Source: a virus
Taxonomy: Duplodnaviria; Caudoviricetes
Length of the DNA stretch: 64,000 nucleotides
Virus record (IMG/VR): IMGVR_UViG_3300010429_001449
Direction: 5' to 3' (one strand)
A program made the position numbers and the translations under genes. Below, one piece after another: positions 28,066 to 57,138 of the stretch. Below the pieces are notes generated by a model. The model did not search any database. It was not told the origin of the DNA and saw only the letters and a list, made by a program, of their open reading frames with translations. Position 1 is the stretch's first letter, and every line of letters begins with the position of its first letter.

Positions 28066-29631
28066 TCAGGACGGAAAACCTCTGCTGACCCAATCGATAG
28101 CCTTCTTGGTGCGGGCCAACCGTTCTGCTTCTTGTCTAGCCAGGGCGAGAGCGTCGTCCCGCGAACGAATCGTTCCTTCTAGTTGCGCGTCCTGTACAGC
28201 CGTCAAGACCTCGCTGAATATTGGACTGGGCGAGAAGCCCATCGCAATAAGGTCGTGTCCGGTCAAGAGCGGTTTCGGCTTCACCTGTTCGGGAGGAAGC
28301 TCTTCTTTCTTGCGCCGGAGCCACTCGTAATCCGAAAGATCGCCGTTGCTTCCCACAGCATCGGCGCGATGAAGGGCCAGCAACCGGTCGAACAGAGGAT
28401 GCGCCATAATGCGCTTGAGCTTGGACAACTTCATGTCCTTGGCGTACGTCGGCACTAAGTGATGCTCAACAAGCCACTGGATAGCCTCAACATCAGCGTT
28501 GCTGAGCCTCATCCTCTTGCCAATCTCTCCTATCATCTCGGCCCCGACATCCTCATGTCTGTGGAACGTGATCCGCTGTTTGGCGTCGTTGAAGGCTTGT
28601 GTCTTAGGCTTGCCCACGTCGTGAAGGAGAGTAGCCCACGTCAAGACCAGATCGCCTTTAGGTTCCAGCTTATCCAGCATCAAAAGCGTGTGTTCCCATA
28701 CCGTACCTTCGGGGTGGAAGTCTTCCGGCTGCTCAATACCCTTCGTGGCGGCCATCTCGGGAAGCACTTTATCCAAAAGGTTCAAACCGTCGAGCAGCCG
28801 GAGTGCTTGCCCCGGATGTTGCGTTTGAAGCATCTTCCCTAACTCGTCGGTTATACGCTCTTGGCTGATGCCCGTGATCTTGTCCGCGTTGCTCTTTATG
28901 GCGTCGGCAGTCTTCTTGTCCATCTCGAAGCCGAAACGCGCCGCAAAACGGACGGCGCGGAGCATACGGAGATAATCCTCTGCAAATCGGTCATTAGGGT
29001 CGCCTACGGCGCGTAAGACGCCGTTTTCCAGGTCTTGTTGGCCTCCAACGTAGTCGATGACCTTCTTCTCTTTGGGGTCGAAAAACAAGGCGTTTATCGT
29101 GAAGTCGCGCCGCTCAGCGTCTTTTTCAGCGGTCGAGAAGCTCACTTCGTCCGGATGCCGTCCGTCCGCATATCCGCTTTCAGTCCGGAAGGTTGCGATT
29201 TCAAACTCGTCATCTCCATCTCGAACCCTTGACACGCCGAAGGCTTCCCCCGCAAACTTGGATTCGGGCCATATCTTGGAAACTTCGTCCGGCGTCGCGG
29301 AAGTTGCTATGTCTATGTCGTGACAGTCACGACCGAGAAGCATGTCTCGCACACAGCCGCCCGCAAAATAGGCTTCATGCCCGGCGTCCTTCAAACGCTC
29401 AACAATGTTCGTGGCGGCTTTGCCTTGCTGGGAATCGAGAACCGCCGCCCAAGCATCTTCTTTGATCTTCTTCTCGGGCTTCTTTTCTTCTTCTCCTTCA
29501 GCGGCTCCGGCGGCAGAAGTAAACTGCCCGGTTTCAGGGTCTTTGCATCTGCTGCCTGGTTTACCGGGAGCGATTTGACACGGCTTGTCGTCGGCTTTCC
29601 TGAATGCTGTTTGTATCCAATCATAGGGCAT
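28066..29631 (-). CDS. cca: CCA-adding tRNA nucleotidyltransferase with HD domain and YDW leader
   Basis: AGGCVRD, DIDIAT, RRDFTINA, EDYLRMLRAVRF, QERI, LLHDVGKP. Confidence 0.92.
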   Translation of the reverse strand: MPYDWIQTAFRKADDKPCQIAPGKPGSRCKDPETGQFTSAAGAAEGEEEKKPEKKIKEDAWAAVLDSQQGKAATNIVERLKDAGHEAYFAGGCVRDMLLGRDCHDIDIATSATPDEVSKIWPESKFAGEAFGVSRVRDGDDEFEIATFRTESGYADGRHPDEVSFSTAEKDAERRDFTINALFFDPKEKKVIDYVGGQQDLENGVLRAVGDPNDRFAEDYLRMLRAVRFAARFGFEMDKKTADAIKSNADKITGISQERITDELGKMLQTQHPGQALRLLDGLNLLDKVLPEMAATKGIEQPEDFHPEGTVWEHTLLMLDKLEPKGDLVLTWATLLHDVGKPKTQAFNDAKQRITFHRHEDVGAEMIGEIGKRMRLSNADVEAIQWLVEHHLVPTYAKDMKLSKLKRIMAHPLFDRLLALHRADAVGSNGDLSDYEWLRRKKEELPPEQVKPKPLLTGHDLIAMGFSPSPIFSEVLTAVQDAQLEGTIRSRDDALALARQEAERLARTKKAIDWVSRGFPS

Positions 29632-29646
29632 ACACAAACATCTCCA

Positions 29647-31518
29647 TCAATAAAGATCGAACACGCCTTCTTGAACCAGGCGGCGCAGGCGGCTGACACG
29701 CTCGTCGATCTCGTTCCCATAAAACCCGTGCCGCAACAGAGTACGACGGAACGCGCTGACGTTCACGTTTTTCAGCTTCTCGTACACATCGTCAGCAATA
29801 GGTTGCTGGTGCAGGGGATAACCGAAACTTGTTGCTCGGAACGTCCCGTAGTACATACCGCCATTGTCGATAGCAACGACTCGTCCCTTTTCCGTCAACA
29901 TAATATTGCCGCCGTGTCGATCCGCGTTCAACATAATCGCATCCAGCGCTAATATTCTGTGCAGCCAACCACTATCTTCGCTATCCAAAAACGCATTCGT
30001 GCTGACCGCTGGCATCGCATCAGCGATATCAAAGTTATCGGGGAACCCAAGACGATTAACGTCCGTCTGCAAAGAGACGCCTTGGAATGACCCATGCTTA
30101 TGCGCAAATTCGCCGCCCAAATTGGCGGTAGGAGGCACTATATTGAAGCCCAGGACTTGATCGATGTCGTAAGCAGCCTCCTCAGCGTATGCCGTTCCGT
30201 GCTGCGCATTGAGTTTGCACAGCGCTCGGCTACCGTCTGCTGTAGTGAGCCAGAACGTAGTGTTTATACCGCCGCTTTCGCTTAATTCCTCTCGATCACC
30301 GGGTTCCGCCTCCGCGAGCGCGGCTTCGAGAATAGCCTTGTTAGCGGGTGATCCCAGCGGAATGTCGTCGGGAGTGCTTGCGCTAATGCGCCCAATGGTC
30401 TCTCGCGTTTGTGCCGCGCTCTCCAGTTGCTGCTCGGTTGCAAGAGTTAAGTCGTCTCCTTCAGAGGCGATCTTGTGATCGAGCACAGCGGCAAGAGCAG
30501 TAACGCCCAAGAGGACTAATGATTTCCCACGGCGCAACCCTCTAATGAACATCTCAGTCTCTTCTGCGATGATCTGGGAATCTCCGTCAGGAGCGTACTT
30601 GGCAAGCCATCCACTCACGTCCTTCTTGTAGCTTTCAACCTCAGAGTCGTCGGCAATAAGCGCGTCAGTCCGCTCCTCCACAGCGAACATACCAAACAAC
30701 TCCTTCACAACAGCCGCCTCGATACGATACTCATGCGCTATATTCTGTATGCGCCCCGCCTGCGCGGAACCGCCGGTCTTGGCAAGATTAATCGCCCATA
30801 GCGTAGAATAAGGCGTTCCCTTATAGGTCAACCCACCAACCACAGCGCTCGCTATCTGCTCGTAGATTTGAATGTCAGCCGGACCTACATAACCTTGAGT
30901 ATAGTTGTACGACGCCTTGACCGAGGCTACCGAAATACCATTCTGAAGACACTCTTCGTTGTATTCATCAGCCGCTTGCTTTAGGGCATCGCGCTCAGCG
31001 GCAGGAACAGCGCCGGTCTTGTCCAACGCTGCCGAGAAGAACTCTGAAATAATCTCATCCTTACTAAGATTACCGGCTCTAACGCGATCAAGAAGATTTT
31101 GGTAAGCTGGGGTGTGATAAAGCTCGTCCTGAGACCAGTGAAACACGCGCCCTATTCCCATGCCGTCGTAGACACTATCTAACACCGCATGAACACCGGC
31201 AGTATCGCCGGGGCGCAATGCACCAAGGGCGTTAATCTTGTCAGACGCAGCCTTGTAAACGCTCTCCCCTAAAGCGCTTGATTCCACGCCGTAACCTTGA
31301 TCGCGCCTCCGGGATATCTCGCGTTCCTTGGTGGAGGACTTCCTTTCTTCGCTCCTGTGCTGTGACGCCTCCGCTCCTTGCGCAGTACCTGCTCTGCCCG
31401 CCGACGTAAACTCACCCGTAGCAGGATCGTGACAACGATTCCCCACTCTGCCGGAGCCGCGACTGCACTCGCTCTGCTCCTGCTTCTCCAGCGCGTACTT
31501 GATCCAATCGTAGATCAC
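29647..31518 (-). CDS. YDW-leader protein with C-terminal PI3/4-kinase/HipA-like kinase domain
   Basis: GGIN, K, EEAAY..D..LG...VPPT, NADRHGGN, AIDNG. Confidence 0.8.
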   Translation of the reverse strand: MIYDWIKYALEKQEQSECSRGSGRVGNRCHDPATGEFTSAGRAGTAQGAEASQHRSEERKSSTKEREISRRRDQGYGVESSALGESVYKAASDKINALGALRPGDTAGVHAVLDSVYDGMGIGRVFHWSQDELYHTPAYQNLLDRVRAGNLSKDEIISEFFSAALDKTGAVPAAERDALKQAADEYNEECLQNGISVASVKASYNYTQGYVGPADIQIYEQIASAVVGGLTYKGTPYSTLWAINLAKTGGSAQAGRIQNIAHEYRIEAAVVKELFGMFAVEERTDALIADDSEVESYKKDVSGWLAKYAPDGDSQIIAEETEMFIRGLRRGKSLVLLGVTALAAVLDHKIASEGDDLTLATEQQLESAAQTRETIGRISASTPDDIPLGSPANKAILEAALAEAEPGDREELSESGGINTTFWLTTADGSRALCKLNAQHGTAYAEEAAYDIDQVLGFNIVPPTANLGGEFAHKHGSFQGVSLQTDVNRLGFPDNFDIADAMPAVSTNAFLDSEDSGWLHRILALDAIMLNADRHGGNIMLTEKGRVVAIDNGGMYYGTFRATSFGYPLHQQPIADDVYEKLKNVNVSAFRRTLLRHGFYGNEIDERVSRLRRLVQEGVFDLY

Positions 31519-31907
31519 TACCCAAACTCCAACCTGCCGTCGCTAGTCAAGGAGAAGCGTACGGCAGAATTGTCTGGGCCTAGTGCGTAAGCCTTCAAGT
31601 AAGCCGACGTACCCACTCGCGCCAGAAGCGCGGCCATGAATTTGAGGCCGTCCTGCATTGTAACGTGCTCTCGGGACAGAGGATTGACCAAACCCCGCTT
31701 CTGCGCCGTGTCAACAAGATACGGAACGGCCTTAGCGTGGCTCACGGCCTCTACGATCCCGTTGTTCAACGTGAACGAAGCTATCGGGACGCCCATGTAA
31801 GGCTTCTCGAACCTCTTTTCCGGGTCTGAACGGTCCACCACAACGACTGTCTTCAGTTCAGTTTTGGCCACGACATTCCTCCGAAACACCAATCTACACA
31901 GACTCAA
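31518..31907 (-). CDS. hypothetical protein
   Basis: ORF coupled to the kinase gene. Confidence 0.55.
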   Translation of the reverse strand: MSLCRLVFRRNVVAKTELKTVVVVDRSDPEKRFEKPYMGVPIASFTLNNGIVEAVSHAKAVPYLVDTAQKRGLVNPLSREHVTMQDGLKFMAALLARVGTSAYLKAYALGPDNSAVRFSLTSDGRLEFG

Positions 31908-31945
31908 CCAAAAAAGGCAACACCAAATACGCGCCAGTCACTCTT

Positions 31946-31973
31946 ATTATAACGGAATGATAGCTATTGTCAA
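31946..31973 (-). promoter_or_regulatory. sigma70-type promoter
   Basis: TTGACA-16bp-TATAAT. Confidence 0.8.
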
Positions 31974-31997
31974 GAGACAAATAAACTGTAACTGCTC

Positions 31998-32414
31998 CTA
32001 CGGCCACGTACAGACGATAATCTCCACATCCGTGCCCGCGAACGCGGCCACAAGCATCTGATTAACGTGCTTCCATTCGAGACGATCTAGGCCGCAGCCG
32101 ATGCGCGGCATAGCTATCTTCTTGACTCCATTCTCTTGAACAAGGCGGCGCATCTCCCTGAGTGCTAATTCCAGTGACGCATAGGAGGGCTTTCGCCAAC
32201 TGTCCTTCTTGGTGATGAGATTGAAGACGCGCCCCGTAAGAACACAAGTAGGGTAAGCTACATTTTGGTGCGCGAGCGCCTTCCTCAATCCAAACTTCGC
32301 GCACATCGGGACGGCGATACCAGCGCCCATTCGTAGGTCTTCCGCAATACAATGGGCGAGATAGTAGTCGTCAGGAACCGTAAACAAGTCTTTGTGTTCT
32401 TCGTGCAGAATCAT
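31998..32414 (-). CDS. macrodomain ADP-ribosylhydrolase (TARG1/DarG-like)
   Basis: DLF...LAHCIAEDLRMGAGIA...FNLITK...MPRIGCGLDRLEW. Confidence 0.88.
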   Translation of the reverse strand: MILHEEHKDLFTVPDDYYLAHCIAEDLRMGAGIAVPMCAKFGLRKALAHQNVAYPTCVLTGRVFNLITKKDSWRKPSYASLELALREMRRLVQENGVKKIAMPRIGCGLDRLEWKHVNQMLVAAFAGTDVEIIVCTWP

Positions 32415-32806
32415 TGCGTAGCCTCCGCACTGACTTGCTGCGCCTTCTTGCACAAACGGATGGTTTTGCGACACAACGGCAAGTCAAAATCGCCGATATG
32501 ACACTTCTTCGCAGGAAGATTCAGTTGCTCCGCCAGCCAGAGATACGCCGCGCTGCGCGTCATTTTGCCGTTACGCCATAGCTGATCGAAAAAGGCGTGC
32601 GTTTCCTTTCTGGCGTCGCGGAGTTCGGCGTTGGCGAGGCGACCTAGCGGCTTATGATCGGGACTGTTGTTATGCGTCCCCACGTATGCGTCGCAAGGAG
32701 CGCACAGCCAGAAAAACAAACCGGCCAAATCGGGCCGATTTCGATAGAGCGCGTCGCCAGTAACAAGCCGCGCCGCACGTTTGCAATAGGGACACACGAC
32801 TTTCAC
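32411..32806 (-). CDS. DUF3268-like Zn-finger protein
   Basis: CPYC...CAPCDAYVGTH...PLGRLAN...AYLWLA...CHIG. Confidence 0.8.
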   Translation of the reverse strand: MKVVCPYCKRAARLVTGDALYRNRPDLAGLFFWLCAPCDAYVGTHNNSPDHKPLGRLANAELRDARKETHAFFDQLWRNGKMTRSAAYLWLAEQLNLPAKKCHIGDFDLPLCRKTIRLCKKAQQVSAEATQ

Positions 32807-33426: not shown

Positions 33427-33752
33427 TTCGTCTTCACCTCCACACCATACGGTGTGTGTTCGTCACCCTCAACCACCGGAACAAGAGCGAACAATATCTC
33501 CGTAGCCGTCTGCCAGAGAAGAACGTGATTGGGGGTCTTCAACAGCGAAAAAACGACGTAGTTGTTTTGGAGCGCGTAGCTGAAATGAGGACCGTACTTG
33601 TTCAGTACTCCCTCGATCTCACTCTGAGTAGCGCAACCGAGACGGGTAAGCGAGGCGTGACCGGTTACGCGCCACTGCTTTTTGCTCACCTTCGTCAGAG
33701 ATGCCAGAAGGCTATCCAACGACGATACCGCGCTATTATCTCCTACACGCAC
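33423..33752 (-). CDS. hypothetical protein
   Basis: Coupled ORF. Confidence 0.5.
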   Translation of the reverse strand: MRVGDNSAVSSLDSLLASLTKVSKKQWRVTGHASLTRLGCATQSEIEGVLNKYGPHFSYALQNNYVVFSLLKTPNHVLLWQTATEILFALVPVVEGDEHTPYGVEVKTK

Positions 33753-33886
33753 GTGATGTTATCCTCACTTGACCGAGAAGGAGCAAGCACCTCAGCGGCC
33801 ACGAAAAGCCTGCCGCGCACATCGCACTGCGCAGCAATCACAATAGTGCGAATGATCATGTTAGCCTCCTGCTATCAACCACTCTT

Positions 33887-33914
33887 AGTATAACGGATTT
33901 GCCCGAAATGTCAA
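33887..33914 (-). promoter_or_regulatory. sigma70-type promoter
   Basis: TTGACA-16bp-TATACT. Confidence 0.85.
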
Positions 33915-33926
33915 GGGTCACTTCCG

Positions 33927-35636
33927 TTATTTTTGAGCCATAGTGATCGAGCAGAGCTTCCCGCCCTTTGTGAACAACGCCTGCGCCCCGCTGCTGGCTA
34001 GGCGCATACTGCCGTCTATGACGGGATCACTGATGACTTTCTTCTTGGCGGCGGTGCGGAAGACTTCAACGTCGTCGTCCTCATTGACCTGGACACAAAC
34101 GCCGTTGTCCAAGACCGTGAAGTTCAGTCCGGTGAAGGTAACGTCTTTGACTGCCGCGTGAGCGTGCGTCACCCATTGATCATCCGACCAGAAAACAAAA
34201 CGGTCGTACCGACCTGTTCTTCGCTCAACACCAACTATTTGCAGAATTCCACGTTCGTACTTGGCGTCAACCACTTCGTAGCCGTCGAGTTCGCGCAAGG
34301 CAAACTGCCGTGCGCACTTGCTTGACGGAAAGACAGAACACCAGTGCGCGTCGAATAGGTTCTGAACAACGACACCGTCAAAGACTTTCGTGCCTTGCTC
34401 CAAGACGTTTCCGACTTGATGCGCGGAGGGAAGAACCTTGTTGCCTGCCTCGGTGAAGCAGATTTCCAGTATTTTGCCTCCGCTGATTATGTAACAACGC
34501 CCGTCCACAACGAAAAGCTGCTGCGCGGTCAGCTTGAGCGGCAGGCTCGTTCTGTCGATGAGGTCCGTGAGTTCCACGCTTCCGTAGCGCAGAGCGGCGG
34601 CTATAGGGCGGTTGTTCTTCGGCGTGAAACACACCTTCGCGTCCGCAGGAAGAACCCCGCCTACTCGCCTCTTATCTACGAAAACGTAATTCTTGCTGCG
34701 CACTATCTGACTTCCGCCGAGATCAAAGACGCTTTCGATATCGTCGCCGAAATCGTAAAGCTCCTTGATGAGGAAGTTATTGCTGCCGGAGATTGAAACA
34801 ACGGGCGGCGCGATTGCGACAGAAATGACGGCAACGAGATCGCTAGGAGGCGGCACGCGCTGACCCTTCTCCAGAACGGCATCGTACCAACGCATATAAA
34901 CATCAGGAACAACTGAGAGCGGCTGCGTGGCTCCCTTCGGGTAGCTGACTGCCGGATTGAGAACAGAGATATTGGCCAACATTCTGCCGTCCAGCGCCGT
35001 CTGAGGGTCTGTATAAGAAGGATGCTTGCCCTTGTAGGGGTGAATCCCCACGAAAAGCTGGAAGCTGACTATCGCAAAACTGAACCAATCCGTCAGGGTC
35101 GAGAACTGGTTGTTCTTGCAGTGACGGTCGCGGACGCTCTCCATCAAAACAGTAGCGGGGTAGTGCGGCGTCTGGTAGCTGTTTACGTCAATGAAGAATA
35201 CGTCCTTGTAAACGTCGTTCACGAGAAAGTTCATCTCGTTGAGATCGACGAGAAGGATATTCTTGCTATGCACAAAACCGACGGTCTGCTGCATCTGGCG
35301 CACCAACGCCAGAATCATGTCGGGCGTGATGTTCTCGCGGCGGCGGAAGGCTTGCGTGAATAGCTGACACAGACAGGCCGTGTCCTTCAAAAAACGCATC
35401 GTATAACCAACAGGAGTGCCCCGGCTGTCCACGAGAATGTCTTCCGGACGGATGATGTGCGGCTCGGTAAGCACGGACAAGTCGCGGAACTTCCCGTCAG
35501 GAATCATCTTGCCTTTGTCGCAGACTTTGTAAACCGTCCCGCCCTTGACGTAAATCTTGCCCTCGCCGCCGATGGCAAGCAGGTCGGCCTGGTTCAATGA
35601 GACCTCGTGATTTTTGCCTCTGACAGTGAGTTTCAT
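33927..35636 (-). CDS. Ser/Thr protein kinase (TerY-associated type)
   Basis: GGEGKIY, K, GYTM, DLNEMN, FIDVNSYQ, TDWFSFA, GIHPY. Confidence 0.85.
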   Translation of the reverse strand: MKLTVRGKNHEVSLNQADLLAIGGEGKIYVKGGTVYKVCDKGKMIPDGKFRDLSVLTEPHIIRPEDILVDSRGTPVGYTMRFLKDTACLCQLFTQAFRRRENITPDMILALVRQMQQTVGFVHSKNILLVDLNEMNFLVNDVYKDVFFIDVNSYQTPHYPATVLMESVRDRHCKNNQFSTLTDWFSFAIVSFQLFVGIHPYKGKHPSYTDPQTALDGRMLANISVLNPAVSYPKGATQPLSVVPDVYMRWYDAVLEKGQRVPPPSDLVAVISVAIAPPVVSISGSNNFLIKELYDFGDDIESVFDLGGSQIVRSKNYVFVDKRRVGGVLPADAKVCFTPKNNRPIAAALRYGSVELTDLIDRTSLPLKLTAQQLFVVDGRCYIISGGKILEICFTEAGNKVLPSAHQVGNVLEQGTKVFDGVVVQNLFDAHWCSVFPSSKCARQFALRELDGYEVVDAKYERGILQIVGVERRTGRYDRFVFWSDDQWVTHAHAAVKDVTFTGLNFTVLDNGVCVQVNEDDDVEVFRTAAKKKVISDPVIDGSMRLASSGAQALFTKGGKLCSITMAQK

Positions 35637-35643
35637 GCCGCAC

Positions 35644-36462
35644 CTACTCGCAGGTAACAACGCCTACCGACAAATCGTCCGCGTTGAACTTTTGATTATG
35701 GGCGTACTCTCGCAACACGCGCAGACAACGACGCTTGACAAATTCGCCCTGTGTACCCTTGAAGGCGAACAGATCGCGCACAACGTCAGCGATATCAATA
35801 GGCTGTTGGCGCACACAAGTACCGTTTACCTCCCGCGAATAGAATGACATAGCACCGTCAGAGAGCACGCCCACAGCGTCAAACTCGTCGAGAGAATACA
35901 TATAGGTGTGCGTCCTGAACGCATCCTTGTCGTCAAAGACAGTCAGTCCGCCGCTCTCGTCATACAAAGTGCGGCAGTATTGTCCGGGGAACTCGGCTTC
36001 ATAGCCCGCTTCAACTTCCGGGGATAGCGCATAACGCGGGTACCACGGCGCTCCGGACGTATAAACCAGCGTCATCCACGAAAGTTCGCCTGTGCGCTTG
36101 CGGCACACAATCACGCCGTCGCCGGAACTGCCGACCAGAAAATGAGTCTTCGTGAGAGCAATGGTCAGCAGCGTAGAAGAGAGTACGTCCTGCGGCAAAT
36201 CCATAGCCTTTCGGTACGTATCTGCGACGGTAACAGCGCGAATAGTCATGTCCTCCCGCGCAAGCTCAACGGGATAAACGAAATGCTCTGCGGCTTTGCC
36301 GAGAAGCAATGCGCCTATGTGTGAGTCAGGAACAGACGAGCATCCGTCGCACACCAAAGTATATGCTTTCTGCTGCGTCTCTTGACAAGACGCGGCGGAG
36401 AAGTCCTGACAGAAATGATGCGTCGAGCCTATCGCGTGATAATGGTCTGCGTTGATCTTCAC
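35644..36462 (-). CDS. PP2C-type protein phosphatase
   Basis: GSTH..CQD, VCDGCSS, GDG, LSDG, DDLS. Confidence 0.85.
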   Translation of the reverse strand: MKINADHYHAIGSTHHFCQDFSAASCQETQQKAYTLVCDGCSSVPDSHIGALLLGKAAEHFVYPVELAREDMTIRAVTVADTYRKAMDLPQDVLSSTLLTIALTKTHFLVGSSGDGVIVCRKRTGELSWMTLVYTSGAPWYPRYALSPEVEAGYEAEFPGQYCRTLYDESGGLTVFDDKDAFRTHTYMYSLDEFDAVGVLSDGAMSFYSREVNGTCVRQQPIDIADVVRDLFAFKGTQGEFVKRRCLRVLREYAHNQKFNADDLSVGVVTCE

Positions 36463-36548: not shown

Positions 36549-37745
36549 TTAGCCCAAAGGCTGCTTATCGAAAGTCCACTGAGCAACTCTGACCGCATCA
36601 CGATCTCCGCAGACCTTACCCACATCGTCACTGAGTTTGACGACCGGAACACCGGCGCATTTGGTCATCTTGATGACCATATTGAGCGCGGGAGACCCAG
36701 GAATATCATTGGTCAAATGTGTCCCAATCCCGAAAACGGGTTTGATGTAACCGTTGAAATGCTTCTGTAGAGCAAGCACCTTCTCTACGTTGAGGTTGTC
36801 ACTGAATACGACCGTCTTTGTCTGCGGGTCCAACCCGAGCGTACGGTAATGCGCAATGACCTGCTCACCGTGATGAAACGGATCGCCGCTATCTTGACGA
36901 ACACCGTCGTACAACCGGGCCAGCGAAGCGTCGAAGTCGCCCAAGAAAGCCGCCGTTCCGTAAGTATCCGTCAAGGCAATGCCGAGAGCGCCCTTGAAAG
37001 TCTGCGCCCATCGCTTTAGCGCGAAACGATTGACGTGTCGAAGGCCATCCAAGGCGCTGCATCCCATGAACCATTCGTGCGCCATCGTGCCGATGGGACG
37101 CAACCCCAGCTCACGCGCCAAGAAGACGTTGGACGTGCCCAAGAAATTGCTGAGAGAGGCGGGAGTGCTCACTATGGCCTGAAACACGCCCTTGTGGATA
37201 TCAAAGCTCCGCCTCCGCCGTGTCCCAAAATCGGCCCACTGACAACGGGCCTCGCCGAGAGCGGCGGCTTTTCCTCGGGCAGCGCATCCTAGCTCACCGA
37301 ACGCAAGCCCGCCGGGAGTCTTGTCAGCGTCGTAATAACGGAAGTAAAGCTCGCTGAGCATTGCCAGCAGCGGCACTTCCCACAAGATCGTGCGCTCCCA
37401 CGGGCCGCGAATAGAAAGGCAAAGCGCACTGTCGATCACATCGGTACTGACCGTCGTCATAAAAACTTCGTCTGGATAGAAACGATACGCACGAAGATAG
37501 TTCAGATACGTCCGGCTGAGGTAAGGACAATGCGCCTCTAACCACGCATACTCAGCAAGACTGAGCGAGAAGTCGCGCATGTTACGCACTCCAGCAATAA
37601 GGTCTTCCAACAGCGAGTGCGTGACCGGCTTCATACCACCGCGACAGATGAATTCGTACTCGACTTCGACGCCGGGGAAGTGCTCAAGCACCGCCTGCTG
37701 CATTGTGAACTTGTAGAGGTCGTTGTCCAGAATGCCTTGTATCAT
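36549..37745 (-). CDS. pncB: nicotinate phosphoribosyltransferase
   Basis: DNDLYKFTMQQ, DFGTRRR, GTSN, GTMAHEW, GVRQDSGDP, FGIGT, KLSD. Confidence 0.95.
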   Translation of the reverse strand: MIQGILDNDLYKFTMQQAVLEHFPGVEVEYEFICRGGMKPVTHSLLEDLIAGVRNMRDFSLSLAEYAWLEAHCPYLSRTYLNYLRAYRFYPDEVFMTTVSTDVIDSALCLSIRGPWERTILWEVPLLAMLSELYFRYYDADKTPGGLAFGELGCAARGKAAALGEARCQWADFGTRRRRSFDIHKGVFQAIVSTPASLSNFLGTSNVFLARELGLRPIGTMAHEWFMGCSALDGLRHVNRFALKRWAQTFKGALGIALTDTYGTAAFLGDFDASLARLYDGVRQDSGDPFHHGEQVIAHYRTLGLDPQTKTVVFSDNLNVEKVLALQKHFNGYIKPVFGIGTHLTNDIPGSPALNMVIKMTKCAGVPVVKLSDDVGKVCGDRDAVRVAQWTFDKQPLG

Positions 37746-40792: not shown

Positions 40793-41599
40793 CTAGGCCA
40801 GGAACTCCTTGGTCGTGCTGACCTGCATCCCCTTGGCCGTCATATCCTTGATGAACTGCTCCTGCAGATGCTCGAAGCCGGGAACCGGACTCGTAGCATC
40901 AGTCAAAAGCACCAGTTTCTTGACGAAACTGCTGTCGGCGAAGTAGGTATCGGCGTCCCGCGCCGTGTTCGCCAGACAGTGACTTCCAGCCTCGCCCGCG
41001 AGCAGAATCACGTCGGCCTGAATGACTGTGTTGAGGAAGTCCGTGTTCAGACTCGTTGTGTGATCGTCGGGGTCCGGAACATCAGCCGTAATGGCTGAGT
41101 AGTGCTCGGTGTGGTAGTTGGACCCCTTCGTGACGTAATCGACGGCGGCAAATTCCTGCCGCTCCCACTCGCACAGCGCGTCGTACAAGGCCGGGAATAC
41201 GCCGTGACCCCACGAACCGATCAGGCAGTGCGGAGGCCATATGCACAACGGGTACTTGCCGTTGCGCTCCAACGTCTCCACGTACTCCTTCGCCCGCTTG
41301 CCCCAGCTTGGCCGATACGGAGTCCACACGCCGTCCTTAACGTCTTGGCTCGTGATGATGGTGAACGGAGCCGGATGCTCGCCGCGCTTGTTGCGCCAAT
41401 ACAACGGATGGGCTACGTGAACAGTGTGGTGGCTGTCCAACGTAACGTGAATATCGTCCACCTTCCCTGAAAGCCTGCGAATCATCTCGGCCAGACGCTG
41501 CATATCGGCGTCTGCGCCCTTGACCGCAAGCGTTCCCTTGGTCTGATCGCAGAAGTCATTCTGCGGATCAATTACGACCAGATGCACTTTCTTGGACAT
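40793..41599 (-). CDS. pncA: nicotinamidase/isochorismatase-family hydrolase
   Basis: IDPQNDFC, DSH, WPPHC, KG, EHYS, GEAGSHC. Confidence 0.85.
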   Translation of the reverse strand: MSKKVHLVVIDPQNDFCDQTKGTLAVKGADADMQRLAEMIRRLSGKVDDIHVTLDSHHTVHVAHPLYWRNKRGEHPAPFTIITSQDVKDGVWTPYRPSWGKRAKEYVETLERNGKYPLCIWPPHCLIGSWGHGVFPALYDALCEWERQEFAAVDYVTKGSNYHTEHYSAITADVPDPDDHTTSLNTDFLNTVIQADVILLAGEAGSHCLANTARDADTYFADSSFVKKLVLLTDATSPVPGFEHLQEQFIKDMTAKGMQVSTTKEFLA

Positions 41600-41717: not shown

Positions 41718-42960
41718 GTGACTGCTCCCACGAGTAAACTCGCGGGCTTCTAGGCCGAAGCCAAAGTGTGCAATCCCACACTTAAGATGTTTCGAGCCGC
41801 ATTCAAATCTCTTCCCAGAACCAATCCGCAATCTGAACAGCGGAATTCTCGCTCCGCGAGACTCAGCTTGTGAATCGCTCCGCAGGAAGAACAAGTCTGG
41901 GACGTATAAGCTGGATTCACCTTCACGACTGTCCTTCCGGCACTTTCAGCCTTGAAGCACAGATGCTCAACGAAGGTTCTCCACGCTACGTCCGCTATCG
42001 ACTTGCTCAACTTGAACGGCTTGCCATTAACCAACATCTTCTTCGTGTTGAGGTCTTCAACACACAGGACGCCGTAGGCGTCTACGAGCCTTCGGCTCGT
42101 TTGATGACAGAAATCCTTCCGCCTGTTCCCGATTCGCTCGTGAACGAGGGCTGCCGAATGTCTATTCTTGTCAGAAGGGGTCTTTGACTTCCTTCTCTGA
42201 ACCTGAGCAAGAGCTTGCTCATCTTGTTTGAAAAACCGAGGGTTCGGAACTGTCTCTCCGGTTGAAAGCGTAGCAAAACTGGAAACTCCGAGGTCGATTC
42301 CGACCGTGTCGTCGTTTTTGGGAAGTTGTTCCGGTTCAACGTCGGAGATGAAAGTAGCGTACCATTTCCCGGTAGCAGTACGGCTAATCGTCAATCGTTT
42401 TACAACGCCTTCGATTTGACGGTGAAGAACAATCGGGATATCCCCGACTTTGGAAAGATGAAGTTTATCCCCTTCAAGCCGGAATGATCCGTTGTTTTGC
42501 GGATGAGTGAATGAGTTGTACCAACCCTTTCCACGGAATCGGGGATAGCCGGGCTTTTCCCCCGCCTTGACACGACGGAAGAAAGCTTTGAAAGCAAGAT
42601 CGAGTCGCATCCCTACTTCCTGGAGCGCCTGTGAATAAACTCCTTTGAGGAACGGTCTCTGTTGCTTGAGTGCAATAAGGCTGTTGTGTTGCTCGTACAA
42701 TCCCACTGATTTCTTGTTCTGTTCCCATTCCGTTTTCCGCTGGGCAAGGAAATGGTTGTACAGCCAACGGCACTCAGACAGAATGTTCACCATGCGGCTC
42801 TGTTGAGCCTTGCTCGGATACAACCGATACCTGAATGCTTTCATCATTATCCTCAGTATATCAGGTCTTATTATGCGTGTCAAGCAAAATTGCATAATAT
42901 TTTTCCTAACTCGCTCTCATCCCATGACTAAAGTCGTGGGCTTTCCCGCTCGTTTCGTAG
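41718..42960 (-). mobile_element. IS200/IS605-family element with tnpB only (IS1341-like); left boundary approximate
   Basis: Left hairpin AAGCCCACGACTTTAGTCATGGG; right hairpin AAGCCCGCGAGTTTACTCGTGGGAGCAGTCAC. Confidence 0.8.
41750..42847 (-). CDS. tnpB: RNA-guided endonuclease TnpB
   Basis: KAFRYRLYP, GIDLG, VEDL, TSQTCSSCG, CSDCG...RDLNAARNIL. Confidence 0.95.
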   Translation of the reverse strand: MMKAFRYRLYPSKAQQSRMVNILSECRWLYNHFLAQRKTEWEQNKKSVGLYEQHNSLIALKQQRPFLKGVYSQALQEVGMRLDLAFKAFFRRVKAGEKPGYPRFRGKGWYNSFTHPQNNGSFRLEGDKLHLSKVGDIPIVLHRQIEGVVKRLTISRTATGKWYATFISDVEPEQLPKNDDTVGIDLGVSSFATLSTGETVPNPRFFKQDEQALAQVQRRKSKTPSDKNRHSAALVHERIGNRRKDFCHQTSRRLVDAYGVLCVEDLNTKKMLVNGKPFKLSKSIADVAWRTFVEHLCFKAESAGRTVVKVNPAYTSQTCSSCGAIHKLSLAEREFRCSDCGLVLGRDLNAARNILSVGLHTLASA

Positions 42961-50357: not shown

Positions 50358-50603
50358 TTAATCCGATCCGGCAGACAATGCCTTGCCCGCCCAGTCTACA
50401 CGAGACGAACGCTTAGGAGAAACAGCCTCGAAGAATTCGCTCGACGCAACATCAGACGCAACCAAGTTGCCTTTATCATCAAAACGCACGCGGCGTACTT
50501 TGCGATCAGGACGAACGCGAGAAACAACAGACGCCAGTTTCCTTTCGACGATAGCCAAGTCGCTAAAATCCGTCGGTTGAAATCCCTTTCGTCGTTCCGT
50601 CAT
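50358..50603 (-). CDS. small hypothetical protein with C-terminal DW..AL motif
   Basis: Coupled ORF ending RVDWAGKALS. Confidence 0.6.
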   Translation of the reverse strand: MTERRKGFQPTDFSDLAIVERKLASVVSRVRPDRKVRRVRFDDKGNLVASDVASSEFFEAVSPKRSSRVDWAGKALSAGSD

Positions 50604-53065
50604 CGCTTACTCCGTTTCTCTTTATAAGAGTCAAAAACATCTTTGCTGTCGCCGGAAAGATCGAACGTCCCGAACCAACGCGCCCCCAACATGGCCGCCT
50701 TCCCAAAACGCCTGTATTTCACGGCGTCTTCCAAAACATCGTCCGACATGTTTCGCTTTTTTTTGAAAACGTCGCGTATAACACCGTCAAATTCAGGAGG
50801 CAGGTCGAAACAGAATGTGGCGTGATCAAACGCCGTGATTCCGACGCTAGAGTCATACTTGTAAGAGTCAAGCAATTCCTCGTGACGATCATCATCAATA
50901 AGACCGGCGCGAAGCGCTTTGTCTAAAACCGTCTCGAACATCTCGGTAATTCTGTACTCGTTGTCTTCGCGGTCTGAGTCAGACTCGAAATCAACACCCA
51001 TAAGCGCCCAAGCATATCCGCCAACAGATTTATTGGCTTCCAATCTCATGTGCCCCACGCCCGCCTGAGACGCTAAGGAGATAGCCCTTTCAAACAAATT
51101 CATGCCTATGCCCTGCCCCTGCTTGGACGCAATAACATCCATGAACCGCAAGTGCAAGCTGTCCTGCTGAAAAGCCATCTCAAATCTCGCGGCCTCTGAC
51201 CCGGAAGAATCAGACAAAGCAACCTCGAAAACGACACCCTCCCCTTCCTCGAACCAGTATTGAGTCACATCTGTATCATAGCCTTCCACCTTGAACAGCG
51301 ATGGCAGCGCGTCTCTATTAGGAACATGAGGATAATCTTCGGCGTAGCGTTGAGCCTCATCCTCACTTTCAGTCTCTTCGAGATAGTAGGAATACGCATC
51401 CATCCAGATATTCTCAGGCGGAGTATCCTCTGCGGGAACGGCTTGTTCTTCAGCCTCCGGTTCTTCATCAACAGCTTCTTCCGCCTCATAGTCCTCGCCA
51501 AGAATGTCTTTGATATCAACGGGATAAATCTCCACGTCGGAAGCATCTATGGTCACGTCGGGACGTTTGCGCCAAGAATAGCCGCCGCCCGTTTCGTAGA
51601 CAGACGCGGGAATGTCCACAGAAAAGGCCCGCTTGCCGTCGTGAACAAAGAGATAGGCGTGATCGTCGCCCTCCTGTCCGCCTTCCACAACCTCAAAACC
51701 CAACTCGGAAAGAATTCCGCTCATCGCGTTGGCTACCGCGTCGCAAATGCCCCCGCCACCATAGTCGTCGAATTCGTCATCAGGACTCCAGTCGTCATAG
51801 ACGCGCTGCGCGGCCTCGGCAAGACGGGATTTCTGGTCGTTTAGATACGACTTCAAGTCCTTATCCCCCAGCCTGCGTATGTCCGGAGGCTTCTCCTCCT
51901 GCGCCCGTTGTTCTTCCATAAAGCCGAATTCGCGCTGACCCGGCTTGGCGGCTTGGGCTGCGTCCGCCACAGAATCGATAGCAGCCCCAGTAGTCACCTG
52001 CCATTCGTCGTGCTTTTTAGAACGAGTACCATAAGCTCCGTCTTTTGGTGTAACACGCACTAAAGATATATTGCGCGGATCAACAGACGCCGTGGCCGTT
52101 GCATCACCGTAGAAACTCGGGTGCTCCCGCCCTCCAGCGCCCTCACGCCCAAGCGTCCACCTATTCATAAAATCCTTGCGGTCGGAGTAAACCCTATCAA
52201 GAGAAGGATTGCGCCACTCATGGTAACGTCTGTCAGCCCCCGATCCTTCTCCAGATGACTCTACCGGAATCCAATCAGACGAAACCTCCCCGCGCTTTTT
52301 TGGTGATGTCCATTCCGTAGCGTAACCATCAATTAATGCCTGCATCGCCTCCGGGATAGGTTTCCCCGGCGACCATCTCCTGTCATTCAGAACAAAAGAA
52401 GACAGAAACGGCTGTTTAGCACCCTTCCCATCAGCGGCGTCTTGGATTAATTGAGCAATGCTGTAGTCGCCCCGCAACACCCCTACATAAAGACGCACGT
52501 CGTCAAGAATGCCTAATGCCGTTTCCCTATTATCAGTAAGACTGACGCGGTTCGTATGACCGCCCAAGCCAGCGCCGCTGTGTCCAACCTCACCGCGCTT
52601 GAATCCTAACTCTTCGTTAGTGCGTAAGCCTTCGCGGAGTACTGCCGGAAGATTAGTCGTAACATGGTATAAAGTTTCGGGGAGAGGAGACCAATCCGCA
52701 GAGTGACTGTAACCAAGGTCTCTAGCCTTGTCGGGCGTTAAATCGCCCACAGACAAGGCGTACTCCACAGCATCGATCCACTCACCCATCTTTTCTTCAT
52801 TCTGAGGATCACGTGCGTAATCGCTAAGAGATTGTGACCATATTTCCTTACGGCGCGTGCCCTCCTGCGATTCGCGGTGCGCACGCGATTCCTCGTCCTT
52901 CTTCGGGGGGACAGCGTGCTCGGCGTCGGTTGTACGACCGCGCTCGTCTCGACAATGCGTTCCCGGACCCGATCCTTCGCCAAAACCACAGGGCGCGGGT
53001 TCCTTCTTGCCTTCCTCTTCGGAGGCTTTGGCGAGGGCGTAACCGAGCCAGTCATACGCCTTCAT
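50600..53065 (-). CDS. YDW-leader polyvalent protein (ART-like and GNAT-like domains)
   Basis: LYHVT...LREGL...VSLT...EW (ADP-ribosyltransferase-like); QGQGIG...EAN..VGGYAWA (GNAT-like). Confidence 0.7.
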   Translation of the reverse strand: MKAYDWLGYALAKASEEEGKKEPAPCGFGEGSGPGTHCRDERGRTTDAEHAVPPKKDEESRAHRESQEGTRRKEIWSQSLSDYARDPQNEEKMGEWIDAVEYALSVGDLTPDKARDLGYSHSADWSPLPETLYHVTTNLPAVLREGLRTNEELGFKRGEVGHSGAGLGGHTNRVSLTDNRETALGILDDVRLYVGVLRGDYSIAQLIQDAADGKGAKQPFLSSFVLNDRRWSPGKPIPEAMQALIDGYATEWTSPKKRGEVSSDWIPVESSGEGSGADRRYHEWRNPSLDRVYSDRKDFMNRWTLGREGAGGREHPSFYGDATATASVDPRNISLVRVTPKDGAYGTRSKKHDEWQVTTGAAIDSVADAAQAAKPGQREFGFMEEQRAQEEKPPDIRRLGDKDLKSYLNDQKSRLAEAAQRVYDDWSPDDEFDDYGGGGICDAVANAMSGILSELGFEVVEGGQEGDDHAYLFVHDGKRAFSVDIPASVYETGGGYSWRKRPDVTIDASDVEIYPVDIKDILGEDYEAEEAVDEEPEAEEQAVPAEDTPPENIWMDAYSYYLEETESEDEAQRYAEDYPHVPNRDALPSLFKVEGYDTDVTQYWFEEGEGVVFEVALSDSSGSEAARFEMAFQQDSLHLRFMDVIASKQGQGIGMNLFERAISLASQAGVGHMRLEANKSVGGYAWALMGVDFESDSDREDNEYRITEMFETVLDKALRAGLIDDDRHEELLDSYKYDSSVGITAFDHATFCFDLPPEFDGVIRDVFKKKRNMSDDVLEDAVKYRRFGKAAMLGARWFGTFDLSGDSKDVFDSYKEKRSKR

Positions 53066-53391
53066 TGAACCGACCCCTCCTCCGGCTGCGCCGTGTATTC
53101 GGGGTCTTCTACATAAAAACGCCACTCGAAGCCTTTGTCGCGGCAGAAGGCAAAGACAGCCTGTTTAACGCCCTCCCAGTAATGCTCGACGCTTTTGGGA
53201 GTGATGCCTCCGACAATCGCAACGCCATACGAATTCTCGAAAATGGCCGCCTCGAACTCCTTAAGGTACGGACCTAAATACGGACCCCACAACCGAACCT
53301 TCTTGAGCGTCCATGACGACGGATTATCCCAGTCGCCAGCTACTGCCGCGACTACACGCTCGCCGTGCATGATGGCTATGAGATATTCCAC
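53062..53391 (-). CDS. hypothetical protein
   Basis: Coupled between two YDW genes. Confidence 0.65.
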   Translation of the reverse strand: MEYLIAIMHGERVVAAVAGDWDNPSSWTLKKVRLWGPYLGPYLKEFEAAIFENSYGVAIVGGITPKSVEHYWEGVKQAVFAFCRDKGFEWRFYVEDPEYTAQPEEGSVQ

Positions 53392-55764
53392 CTAAAGACC
53401 TCTGCAAACAGCCCAAGCGTGCATCAAATGCTCCGGGTCATCTCGCAACAGTTTATTGAACCATCGATCCGAAAACAATGCCGCAACACCCATCGAGATC
53501 ACTTCGTGAAACGGCATACTAGGATTTTCGGAATAGTAACGACCTACGTAACCGTCCGCAAAACGATCTCTGTAAGCGACCTCGCCCTCCGGATAACCTT
53601 CGAGTTGCGTCGGATTCTGTTCAGCCGTCCCCACAACGCGCTGCCACGCCCACTCATTGAGACGGGCGTGAACAGCGCTGTTGCGAAAGCCGATGTGGTG
53701 CGCAAACTCGTGCGCAACCGTCTCTTGACTGGAATCGCCAGTCAACAGGATACTGTTCGCTTCGGCACAAGCCGACGCTCGACGCGCTTCCCGCGTGAAG
53801 TTCCATTCTATAGAAGCCAGAGCGGGATCAGCCAAGAGATTCGGATTCAGAACGGACAAAACATCGTCAACACCCTCCGACCAAGGACCGGTCAAATAGT
53901 CAGGAGCGCCCGGCATCGTAAGAATGCCTTCGTTGGCGAAAGTACGTATCTGATCGCGCTTCTCGGAAGGCGTATCGGCAAGATCGCGCAATGTCTGAAG
54001 CATTAAATTCCTGCCGCCGCGATCCAGACGCTCCTTCGTAAGACCGAGCATCGCGGCGTCCCTGTTGGCGGCGTCCAGAGCGTCTTTGGATTTGGTGGCG
54101 GGGGAATAGGATAAGGTCTTCAAGTAAGCAACGACAGGCTTCTGCGCTTCCCGTAATGCCGCGCTAATGCTCTCCAAGCGATTGTTGTAATCGAACCGCG
54201 CCGCGTTCCGACGATTGAGCGCCTCTTCGTGACGAGCGCTAAGCTCTCTGAATTCGGTCGTCAAAGCAGCCTCTTGGCGCACGAGATCGGCGCGGGACGG
54301 ATCATCTGCGCCAAGACTCGACAGCCTCTCCCTCGCGTACAACAATTCGGCATTTTTGGCAAAAGTGTCGCTACCCAGTTCGGAGGCGACGTGCATTGCG
54401 GCATTCCAAGCGTCGTTCGCCGCCGGAAGCGACGCCTCAAGCTCGGCAACCGCACGCAGCTTGGAAGAAGACATGCGCGGAGGAGTCCGTCGCCAGTTTT
54501 TCACGATCTTGAGAGCGTCGGAAGAAATAAGACGCCGCGCCTCCTTGAAATCAGAAACGGAAGCAAGCAGTTGTATGTCGTTATCAGTCTTGAAGACGCG
54601 CCATTGACCGTCTTTAACAGTATACTCAGCACGATAGGAAACGATGCCTCCGCCATTCAACACGTCGCGGAAATAAACGCTCATATCACCGTCAGAATAG
54701 GCGTTTACGCCGCCACGATCAATCATCAATTGCCAATCGGGCTTCTTCTCCCCCTGAGAATAGGAACGAGAAGCGGCTACCGCCGCATCCTGCGCGGAGT
54801 ATTCGTCGTCAAACGACTCGCCGGTCTCGGCGTCAAAGTAAGCCTCGAAGTGCCCGAACGGATTTTTGAAGATATAACTCTTGCGGGCCGTAACAACATA
54901 CTTGTCCGAAATCGAGTGAATGCCAAAACTTACATCCGGCTTGGACAAACGGTCTTCCCGCTCGGAACTGACTACCTCATCCGCATCCCAGATGCGCCCG
55001 TATTGAAGCAAGTTCGCCCTCGCCACATCGCGGTCGAGCTTGCGCGAATCCTCCACCACCTCCTCTTCCTCTTCCTCAACATCTGCCTCCGGCAACTGCT
55101 CGGTCGAAGAAACCTCTTCGGCGGCGGATACGTCTATCTCTGGAGCAGAAAGAAGATCGTCGCGCCCAGCCAAGGAGAGCCACCGCTCGTAGTCCTTTAT
55201 CTGGTCGTCCGTGTAACCTAACAGACGAGAAAACTGGGGCGTGCCATATGCACCGCCACGCTCCAAGTAACGAACAAGAGGCGCAGCATCCTCCTCGTTT
55301 TGCGCAAAAATGCCTACGCCGCGCACGTTGGTCACGTACAGACCCGCCGCCTGCGCCGCTGTGTAATCCGCGCCCCCGCTCGATTCCACGCCAACCTTGA
55401 ACTTGCCGTCAATAATGTCCTGCAATCGGTGAATATTGTCGTCAAGCTTGCGGTGAAGCTCGGCCTTCTCGCGCTGACGCTCCTCCTCAGACATGTCCGA
55501 AACAGCCTCGCGCTCTTCCTCCCTGCGCTTTGCGCGTGCGCGTTCGTCAAAACGACGCTGACGCTCACGGTTCTGAGCGGACTCTTTGTCCTGCTTAGGA
55601 TCAACGTGGCCGCCAATGTCGGTCGTCTCCCCCTCCTCGTCCCGACACCACGTTCCGGGGCCGCCGCCCTTCCCGTGGCCACAGTTCCTATCCGACGATT
55701 CCGATTCGGACTCGGAATCGCTCTCCTTCTTGGAGAGAGCTATAGCCAGCCAGTCGTAAGGCAC
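53392..55764 (-). CDS. YDW-leader protein with C-terminal zincin-like HExxH domain
   Basis: TVAHEFAHH...YVGRYY...EVISMG. Confidence 0.75.
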   Translation of the reverse strand: MPYDWLAIALSKKESDSESESESSDRNCGHGKGGGPGTWCRDEEGETTDIGGHVDPKQDKESAQNRERQRRFDERARAKRREEEREAVSDMSEEERQREKAELHRKLDDNIHRLQDIIDGKFKVGVESSGGADYTAAQAAGLYVTNVRGVGIFAQNEEDAAPLVRYLERGGAYGTPQFSRLLGYTDDQIKDYERWLSLAGRDDLLSAPEIDVSAAEEVSSTEQLPEADVEEEEEEVVEDSRKLDRDVARANLLQYGRIWDADEVVSSEREDRLSKPDVSFGIHSISDKYVVTARKSYIFKNPFGHFEAYFDAETGESFDDEYSAQDAAVAASRSYSQGEKKPDWQLMIDRGGVNAYSDGDMSVYFRDVLNGGGIVSYRAEYTVKDGQWRVFKTDNDIQLLASVSDFKEARRLISSDALKIVKNWRRTPPRMSSSKLRAVAELEASLPAANDAWNAAMHVASELGSDTFAKNAELLYARERLSSLGADDPSRADLVRQEAALTTEFRELSARHEEALNRRNAARFDYNNRLESISAALREAQKPVVAYLKTLSYSPATKSKDALDAANRDAAMLGLTKERLDRGGRNLMLQTLRDLADTPSEKRDQIRTFANEGILTMPGAPDYLTGPWSEGVDDVLSVLNPNLLADPALASIEWNFTREARRASACAEANSILLTGDSSQETVAHEFAHHIGFRNSAVHARLNEWAWQRVVGTAEQNPTQLEGYPEGEVAYRDRFADGYVGRYYSENPSMPFHEVISMGVAALFSDRWFNKLLRDDPEHLMHAWAVCRGL

Positions 55765-55980
55765 GCCTATGCTCCAAAACCAACCTTCACTTTGCCGCCG
55801 CCGTCAACCTTGTCGCTAGAACGCACTTTGATCTTCCGAGCCTTCGGCGCAACAGGAACCAACGGCGCGTCGGACGGACAAGCCAGCAGACATAAAACCA
55901 TTACCTTGGGACGTAGAGCGAGCGTCGTCTTGTCCATGCCTTGTAAAATACCCGATGAGTAACAACGATACAAGCGGCAA

Positions 55981-57138
55981 CTACCGCCGCTGCCTACGCG
56001 CCGCGATGATATTAATCTGATTGCGAAGACCAGGCAATAAACTCTCCGCATGACGAAACAACGTGTCCTCTTTGGAGCCGCGAGGCGCACGCCGTTTCAG
56101 CGCTTCCATCGATGCAATAAGACTGTCCGCGTCCTCGGAAGACACATCATCCCATACATAAGGATCGCTCAACTGCCGCACCTTGTAATTAACATCCGCC
56201 ATAGAGTCCTGCCCGCGCAGCCGTTCCAGCGTGTAATAACCTCTGGCCCGAAGCGACTCTGCGCCGCTTCCCGGTGTCGCCCACGGAGCAAGCTCTTCAA
56301 GCGATTGCTCCAACTTGCTGCTCTCAGCCTCCGCAAGAATATCCGGCAACGGATCGAGTTCCGAAAGCAGGCCGGACAGATGCGACAACACGCCATCGAC
56401 GCGAGTCATCGTCTCTTCTCGACGACGCTCATCCTCCGGCAACGCCTCAAGATAAGCTCTCCTCTCAGCGGCGCGTCTCTCGACCCTGGCAGCAGCCTCC
56501 TGTCTCAGGGCGCTCGCCCTCTCGGTGCGTTCGCGCTCCGCACGACGATCAGATTCAAGCTTCGCTTCTCTCGCGGCAGCCCGTTTTTTCGCGCCCGCCA
56601 ACTCGGAGAGAACATTCTCGCCACGCCTCACCCAGTCAGACTCGACACTTCCGGATTCAACATGAGGCTTAAGCGTGTTAATGGCGGCCCTCAAAACAGG
56701 CTCCCAATCGTCTGAAAGCACGTCGCCATGCTCGTAAGACTGCGTGTAAGCCTGCACATCCGACAAGGCGTCGTTCCACGCTTCGGCATCCGGCGGACTC
56801 GGCGGCTCTTCAACTTCCGGAGCAGCCTCCGGCGCGGCTTCCGGAGCAGCCTCCGGCGCGGCTTCCGACTCAAGCTCCTCCAACTGCTGCCGCGCCGACT
56901 GAGCAATATCCGGATCGTCAGAATTGACCAACGATGACAAGTGCTTCCTTCGATCCGATTCAGTTATCCCTTCGCGCCACTCCAAGCCGTGCTGCCCTAT
57001 CCTGAAATCGTAATCGTCGCTGCGGGCAAAAGTCCCGTCCGCATAACGATACGGATTCGCCTTCTCAGTAACTTCCGTAGCCTCGGAATCATCATCCAAC
57101 TGAGACCGCAAACCCTTTAACACCCAGTCGTAAGGCAT
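55981..57138 (-). CDS. YDW-leader helical protein
   Basis: MPYDWVLKGL...EKANPYRYADGTFA, (AAPE)n linker. Confidence 0.75.
   Translation of the reverse strand: MPYDWVLKGLRSQLDDDSEATEVTEKANPYRYADGTFARSDDYDFRIGQHGLEWREGITESDRRKHLSSLVNSDDPDIAQSARQQLEELESEAAPEAAPEAAPEAAPEVEEPPSPPDAEAWNDALSDVQAYTQSYEHGDVLSDDWEPVLRAAINTLKPHVESGSVESDWVRRGENVLSELAGAKKRAAAREAKLESDRRAERERTERASALRQEAAARVERRAAERRAYLEALPEDERRREETMTRVDGVLSHLSGLLSELDPLPDILAEAESSKLEQSLEELAPWATPGSGAESLRARGYYTLERLRGQDSMADVNYKVRQLSDPYVWDDVSSEDADSLIASMEALKRRAPRGSKEDTLFRHAESLLPGLRNQINIIAARRQRR

Follow-up and report, generated by a model that had tools for sequence, protein, structure and literature searches.

The stretch of DNA analysed here is a 64-kb window (the term denotes this whole stretch throughout) of the Caudoviricetes record IMGVR_UViG_3300010429_001449 in IMG/VR. 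It carries five large minus-strand genes whose products all begin with a leader containing the tripeptide Y-D-W. Read in the direction of the strand, they encode a helical, charged protein of 385 amino acids (aa) at 55981..57138; a 790-aa protein with Ser/Glu-rich and Arg/Glu-rich spacers at 53392..55764; an 821-aa mosaic protein, made up of unknown modules and a GNAT-like C-terminal domain, at 50600..53065; a 623-aa PI3/PI4-kinase-like protein (SCO1664-family-like) at 29647..31518; and a CCA-adding enzyme of 521 aa at 28066..29631. The leader, hereafter the tag, occupies approximately positions 56989-57138, 55579-55764, 52892-53065, 31363-31518, and 29482-29631, respectively, and scores 50.2, 73.2, 80.6, 73.9, and 79.7 bits with a hidden Markov model (HMM) of the leader.

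In the six-frame translation of the window, Y-D-W was found exactly five times, compared with 1.0 expected by composition and with a mean of 1.1 and a maximum of 3 in 100 first-order Markov simulations. All five tripeptides are located at residues 3-5 (4-6 in one case) of minus-strand open reading frames (ORFs) of 385-821 aa, in agreement with an earlier note on this DNA, in which five large proteins were said to share an N-terminal YDW leader. Each of these ORFs is preceded by a GGAG-type ribosome site 6-11 nt upstream, and independent gene calls in public assemblies gave identical starts (385, 790, 821, 623, and 521 aa). The peptide D-W-x3-[AG]-[LF] was detected seven times in the window ORFs (six frames; 0.9 expected), and every match was placed at a gene end, five at N-termini and two at C-termini. 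The C-terminal copies belong to the CCA enzyme (D-W-x3-G-F, 28069..28101 on the minus strand, about the last 10-11 residues, 2 residues before the stop) and to an 81-aa basic protein (D-W-x3-A-L, 50361-50402, about the last 13-14 residues), the gene of which (50358..50603, minus strand) directly follows the 821-aa gene. Both copies are kept in a related phage represented by loci L004 and L005, namely in the CCA orthologue P0003 (L005) and in a 78-aa orthologue of the small protein (L004:4848-5084; 51% identical, with the same C-terminal peptide). What had previously been noticed as a DW echo at two C-termini is thus the same conserved peptide. Its presence at both N- and C-termini indicates that the tag core is a terminal short linear motif that can stand at either end of a protein.

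The complete module is 50-100 aa long, and BLASTP similarity between the paralogues ends at residues 60-100. Leader alignments gave the consensus M-x-Y-D-W-[ILV]-x2-[AG]-[LF]-x-K for the N-terminal peptide. An acidic spacer, 2 to about 14 residues in length, leads from it to a Gly-rich loop that is bracketed by Cys and carries a hairpin (C-x3-G-x-G-x2-G-x2-C-[RKH]-D-x2-3-G-x-[FT]-T), and a Glu/Arg/Lys-rich charged stretch closes the module ahead of the payload. The architecture described earlier, a charged linker and then unrelated payloads, is therefore visible in the alignments. Y, D, W, and one Gly were invariant, and conservation reached 90% across 10 leader sequences for K12, the two Cys, and the Asp that follows the second of these. 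The leader of the 385-aa protein, already singled out as departing from the Cys pattern, has neither Cys and keeps a D-G-T-F-A hairpin. This bears on an explanation in which the D-W peptides would pair with each other or with their own payloads, as homotypic stickers or as an autoinhibitory latch assembling or silencing the enzymes. The CCA enzyme, with D-W peptides at both ends, and the small partner of the tagged GNAT protein, with its C-terminal copy, would suit such pairing. However, three carriers have a single copy and no tagged partner, and since the 385-aa protein lacks the two Cys, a shared metal-bridged dimer cannot be general. We regard self-pairing as unlikely.

AlphaFold2 modelling of the leader with the 10-sequence alignment predicted a helix at residues 3-14, a small hairpin at 28-39, and a helix at 49-69, with a predicted local distance difference test score (pLDDT) of 52. 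Such a low value is compatible with a module that may not be stably folded alone and may fold as a peptide on a partner. The hydrophobic moment of the D-W peptide varied from 0.14 to 0.65 among the copies (shuffled mean 0.29), the D-W pair itself did not vary, and Gly or Pro is found midway along the C-terminal copies; these features point to specific recognition rather than to a generic amphipathic helix. Membrane-targeting helices, such as those of MinD and FtsA, are likewise short and found at either terminus, and the first 12 residues of the tag might accordingly be viewed as an amphipathic helix taking the lipid-kinase-like protein and the other carriers to the cell membrane. The resemblance of one carrier to PI3/PI4 kinases and the low-confidence helix at 3-14 would fit, but the inconsistent moment, invariant residues (Asp and Trp) that form no hydrophobic face, and the mid-peptide Gly/Pro do not. 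Membrane targeting would also leave the conserved Cys loop and hairpin unexplained and offers no rationale for a CCA enzyme at the membrane; we consider it very unlikely.

Synonymous codon positions within the tag differ among the copies (TAT/TAC, GAT/GAC, and ATG/GTG starts), which indicates that conservation acts at the protein level. Although identity among the paralogue leaders is no higher than 15-45%, the invariant residues are the same in all of them. In the second uncultured phage (L004, L005), the CCA enzyme and the kinase each have a tagged orthologue, and two mosaic proteins are tagged as well; a third, more distant phage (L006) has a kinase orthologue (P0008) with an I-D-W variant of the tag. 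Between the window kinase and P0008 the tag is the best-conserved segment, with 69% identity at residues 15-40 and 24-43% over the remainder. These data are difficult to reconcile with a tag that has no function of its own, its shared 5' ends being leftovers of duplication and cassette recombination. The carriers do shuffle, and the 821-aa protein recombines modules of two separate genes of the relative. Nevertheless, the invariant residues have persisted while the synonymous sites drifted, the distant kinase has retained the module better than anything else, the tag is present on a housekeeping-type CCA enzyme sharing nothing else with the other carriers, and independent C-terminal copies exist, so we give this explanation hardly any credence. 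At the level of sequence, the comparisons show a real, terminal module that selection maintains at the protein level and that is portable between payloads and between protein ends. The modular character proposed in the earlier note is borne out in this respect, as a selected, portable module on unrelated payloads.

The distribution of the tag is narrow. A nine-leader profile searched against 1.84 billion cluster representatives recovered four proteins, all from these phages, and a word-seeded search of 5.8 billion proteins added to this set just one Kelch-repeat protein, the resemblance of which is a chance one limited to the hairpin motif. The leader alone gave no match in Pfam, PHROGs, or PDB profile searches. 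Among 50,697 phage records, no match was found to 20 kb of the sequence (megablast) or to the 790- and 821-aa proteins (tblastn). An IMG/VR scan with the 790-aa protein found nothing, a homologue search with the same protein returned only itself, and a metagenome scan with an alignment of the GNAT module yielded nothing beyond a second copy of the relative known before. Scanning IMG/VR for the promoter-like pattern described below produced 115 unrelated single matches, none with the leader. As judged from these searches, the portable tag is lineage-specific and occurs in no more than a small clade of huge, uncultured phages.

The CCA enzyme has the full class II domain set (Pfam PolyA_pol 1e-38, PolyA_pol_RNAbd 2e-18, HD 3e-11) and matches phrog_2244, tRNA nucleotidyltransferase, at 4e-82; its PolyA_pol head domain (residues 87-207) starts only at residue 87. 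The 623-aa protein has a PI3/PI4-kinase-like catalytic core, matching Pfam PI3_PI4_kinase at 2e-07 and TIGR03843 at 8.6e-12. Coupled to the kinase start is an untagged gene for a 117-aa protein of no known family (31518..31871, minus strand), a 79% identical orthologue of which lies upstream of the L005 kinase. The 117-aa protein adjoins the tagged kinase in three phages (L005:4606-4959, L006:2019-2366, and the window); the homologue beside the distant L006 kinase, P0010, was recognised by eye, and its position is flipped there. It is likely a functional partner, substrate, or regulator of the kinase.

The 821-aa protein resembles two proteins of the related phage. Its residues 1-468 correspond to residues 1-463 of P0004 and its residues 375-821 to residues 257-699 of P0005 (49% identity), and residues 524-616 recur as residues 87-181 of the 385-aa protein. 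The gene is recombinant, its halves lying in two adjacent tagged genes of the relative (L004:436-4848), with the 78-aa gene between. Such an arrangement suggests that the 821-aa gene may have arisen by deletion or duplication through shared modules. The ART/GNAT-like label given to this protein survives in its GNAT part, where P0005 matches Acetyltransf_1 at 1.7e-4 (above the cut-off) and a weak PDB acetyltransferase match (0.032) was obtained; the ART identity was dropped, being without support in Pfam, NCBIfam, PHROGs, or PDB. An untagged 109-aa gene (53062..53391, minus strand) overlaps the start of the 821-aa gene, and in L004 its orthologue (54% identical) stands immediately upstream of P0004.

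In the 790-aa protein, an H-E-x-x-H motif was read near the C-terminus, and residues 661-788 match phrog_33618, of unknown function, at 5e-05. No Pfam or PDB match was obtained, and single-sequence AlphaFold2 of the HExxH domain gave no usable fold (pLDDT 39); the label zincin-like is accordingly retained only as a reading of the motif. The C-terminus of an orthologue of this protein is encoded at the start of L004. The 385-aa protein has no family match in Pfam, PHROGs, PDB, or NCBIfam, and no Pfam match at E <= 0.01 was found for the 821-, 790-, and 385-aa proteins or for P0004. By their domain content, the payloads behind the tag (CCA enzyme, kinase-like protein, GNAT mosaic, HExxH protein, and helical protein) are unrelated.

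Several known systems resemble this arrangement. The capsid-targeting sequence (CTS) of phage T4 is an N-terminal peptide carried by IPI-III and Alt (Mullaney and Black, 1996, as summarised in PMC5694885). Like the CTS, the tag is a short N-terminal peptide on otherwise unrelated proteins of one phage, five in the present case, and is portable; T4 cargo also includes enzymes, e.g., the Alt ADP-ribosyltransferase. Unlike the CTS (10-20 aa), it is bipartite, about 50 aa long, and also C-terminal, it has no conserved [LI]-x-E cleavage site, and no head module was recognised around its carrier genes within about 37 kb to the left and 26 kb to the right of the window, their products being putative cargo. 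A second parallel is offered by the cargo-loading peptides of encapsulins, which bind the lumen of an HK97-fold shell and are usable at the N- or C-terminus (PMC7355545). With these and microcompartment peptides the tag shares a terminal peptide of ~10 residues plus a flexible linker, placement at either end (five N-terminal and two C-terminal copies, with charged low-complexity spacers following), and unrelated enzymes as cargo; it differs in sequence and in the Cys loop and hairpin, which have no counterpart there. No encapsulin or BMC-H/P shell family (Pfam) was detected among the gene calls of the loci read.

Huge phages provide a third parallel. SPN3US gp53 and gp54 have identical N-termini, and the long N-terminal propeptides of phiKZ and SPN3US (gp47, gp53, gp54) head and ejection proteins represent conserved N-termini on diverged paralogues, for which targeting to the prohead has been proposed (PMC5694885). 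Those propeptides terminate in [ASG]-x-E sites, where a T4-type protease cuts, and the proteins bearing them are proven virion components, whereas no such site is conserved behind the tag and its carriers are putative virion proteins. Finally, phage polyvalent proteins, e.g., P1 DdrB and DarB, are a class for which packaging and injection have been proposed (Iyer, Burroughs, Anand, de Souza, and Aravind, 2017, PMC5512222). A mosaic make-up of several modules is seen in three of the carriers and in the relatives P0004 and P0005, with a ParB-like module in P0004; like polyvalent proteins, they combine effector-type modules (GNAT-like, ParB-like, metallopeptidase motif) that are shuffled between relatives. 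They differ in that the carriers are smaller (385-821 aa) and the tag is also found on single-enzyme proteins (CCA enzyme, kinase); a common N-terminal tag is not described for polyvalent proteins in PMC5512222. Pfam detected no polyvalent-associated domains (MPTase-PolyVal, LPD families) or MuF in the carriers. A MuF-like stretch suspected by eye in a module-sharing protein, P0018, gave no MuF match either. By analogy, it is plausible that the tag is a peptide of the capsid-targeting or cargo-loading kind, with a new sequence and belonging to a small huge-phage clade.

The explanation which we rank first, and hold tentatively, short of an even chance, is that the Y-D-W module is an address label that loads its carriers into the assembling prohead. 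In such a mechanism, a terminal docking peptide, [YIV]-D-W-x3-[AG]-[LF], would be readable at either protein end, a charged Glu/Arg/Lys-rich arm would hold the payload away from the docking module, and the module would dock otherwise unrelated tagged proteins onto one common receptor. This receptor would be the assembling prohead, i.e., the shell interior, the core or scaffold, or the portal, and both the tagged enzymes and the effectors of polyvalent type would go into the head and leave it again together with the DNA. A single receptor, its location in the head, and any cleavage are elements that we infer. Head loading was placed first because of the polyvalent-type carriers, the shared N-terminal peptides of T4 and giant phages, and the either-terminus peptides of HK97-fold shells. 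The C-terminal copies fit the model of a docking or cargo-loading peptide, while a strictly N-terminal, cleaved propeptide does not predict them. As to the injected effector arsenal envisaged earlier, three payloads have the polyvalent-type mosaic make-up, and for this class of proteins packaging and injection are a proposal; the carriers would be candidates for virion proteins.

A 124-kb contig in ENA contains the window, and the phage, of ~270 kb, is also represented by a 269-kb contig. Together with the flanks, 37 kb on the left and 26 kb on the right, ~125 kb were read. All window genes from about 57.1 kb down to 0.5 kb are on the minus strand. The 385-aa gene is the first gene of a unidirectional minus-strand block of >85 kb, and the divergent plus-strand gene starts at 57296. 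The divergent intergenic region spans 57139-57295, and the minimum of the cumulative GC skew is at about 58 kb. Genes for translation and RNA functions are abundant in this genome. Thirteen tRNA genes lie between 13.1 and 24.9 kb (ARAGORN), with a full-length tmRNA gene inside the cluster (22013-22389, minus strand; Rfam 138 bits). A Ro60/TROVE-like RNA-binding protein with a vWA domain is encoded at 505-2277 on the minus strand (phrog_850 6e-40; Pfam vWA_Ro60), within the strand block that also holds the gene for the tagged CCA enzyme. Adjoining genes for a PP2C-type phosphatase (272 aa) and a Ser/Thr-kinase-like protein (577 aa), both untagged, occupy 33927-36462 on the minus strand, downstream of the NAD-salvage genes for NAPRTase (36549-37745) and an isochorismatase/nicotinamidase-like protein (40793-41599). 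The context also holds several DNA methylase genes. At least three IS605 OrfB/TnpB (Cas12f-like) genes were found in about 100 kb (41750-42895, minus strand; L012:15202-16371; L021:16769-17893). The product of L012:14240-15205 matches AcrVA2-like, and L012:10455-12644 is a ParB-like gene with a LAGLIDADG insertion.

A near-invariant promoter-like site, consisting of C-TTGACA, 14 nt, and GTTATA[AC]T-A (TTGACA-N14-GTTATAAT type), has 17 minus-strand copies in the window, at 349, 2383, 13337, 16742, 18184, 20092, 22639, 25256, 28057, 31973, 33914, 37794, 41683, 46626, 47307, 49632, and 63471, and a plus-strand copy at 57244. It recurs about every 3 kb before operons and tRNA clusters, and is also present in the flanking loci, L004, and L005. 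The element matches the sigma-70-type consensus perfectly, even though genes for at least four sigma-70-like factors of the phage lie immediately to the right of the window. One copy (31939..31973, minus strand) precedes the operon of the 117-aa, kinase, and CCA genes, and the next, at 28057, comes directly after the CCA stop; L005 keeps this layout around its kinase-CCA operon, with sites at 4495 and 8418. The block with the other three carrier genes, from 57138 down to 49649, has no such site inside or in front, and no recurring motif that might represent a second promoter class was found upstream of the 385-aa gene. The site also precedes an Lcl_C-domain gene further left, so that the timing of expression is not readable from it.

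Several of these observations weigh against loading into the head. Nothing recognisable as a gene for a head protein, portal, protease, or terminase was seen in the ~125 kb read, where searching with the leader HMM recovered just the five known carriers; the earlier note had expected such a search to detect head or internal proteins. The 10-sequence alignment has no Glu-type prohead-protease site at a conserved column behind the tag; K12 is conserved, but the cleavage after K by the prohead protease that had been suggested was not supported. In sequence, the tag does not resemble the T4 CTS, and a CCA-adding enzyme would be an unusual component of a virion. The kinase-CCA operon, moreover, lies among tRNA, tmRNA, Ro60, and NAD-salvage genes under the same sigma-70-like promoter, a setting which would also suit an intracellular, non-virion role. 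In that role the tag would dock the carriers on a hub in the infected cell, such as a phage-built factory for translation or RNA repair, a compartment for replication, or some machine of the host, and would concentrate the CCA enzyme, the kinase, and the effectors there after synthesis. A hub fits nearly as well as head loading: this neighbourhood, with its 13 tRNA genes and shared promoter type, and the lack of head genes nearby speak for it, and the evidence for a specific terminal docking peptide agrees with it equally well. Against it, no candidate hub protein was identified, and polyvalent-type carriers are usually argued to be delivered with the DNA (PMC5512222). We consider docking on such a hub doubtful, though the most serious of the alternatives.

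Returning to head loading, a more specific version of it would be that the huge phage loads ready-made enzymes of housekeeping type, a CCA enzyme and a lipid-kinase-like protein, into its head via a private either-terminus address code and injects them with polyvalent effectors, so that tRNA 3'-end repair and host remodelling would start before phage gene expression. We offer this version as a possibility, with less confidence than head loading in general.

Should the tag serve for loading into the head, sequence alone would be enough to define which proteins an uncultured lineage of huge phages injects, and such phages would deliver tRNA-repair and kinase activities with their DNA. The tag would then also be a compact targeting peptide usable at either terminus and a candidate for packaging foreign proteins, a use to which the T4 signal has been put. 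If it is not, a specific docking peptide on unrelated proteins would still point to an organising hub in infected cells.

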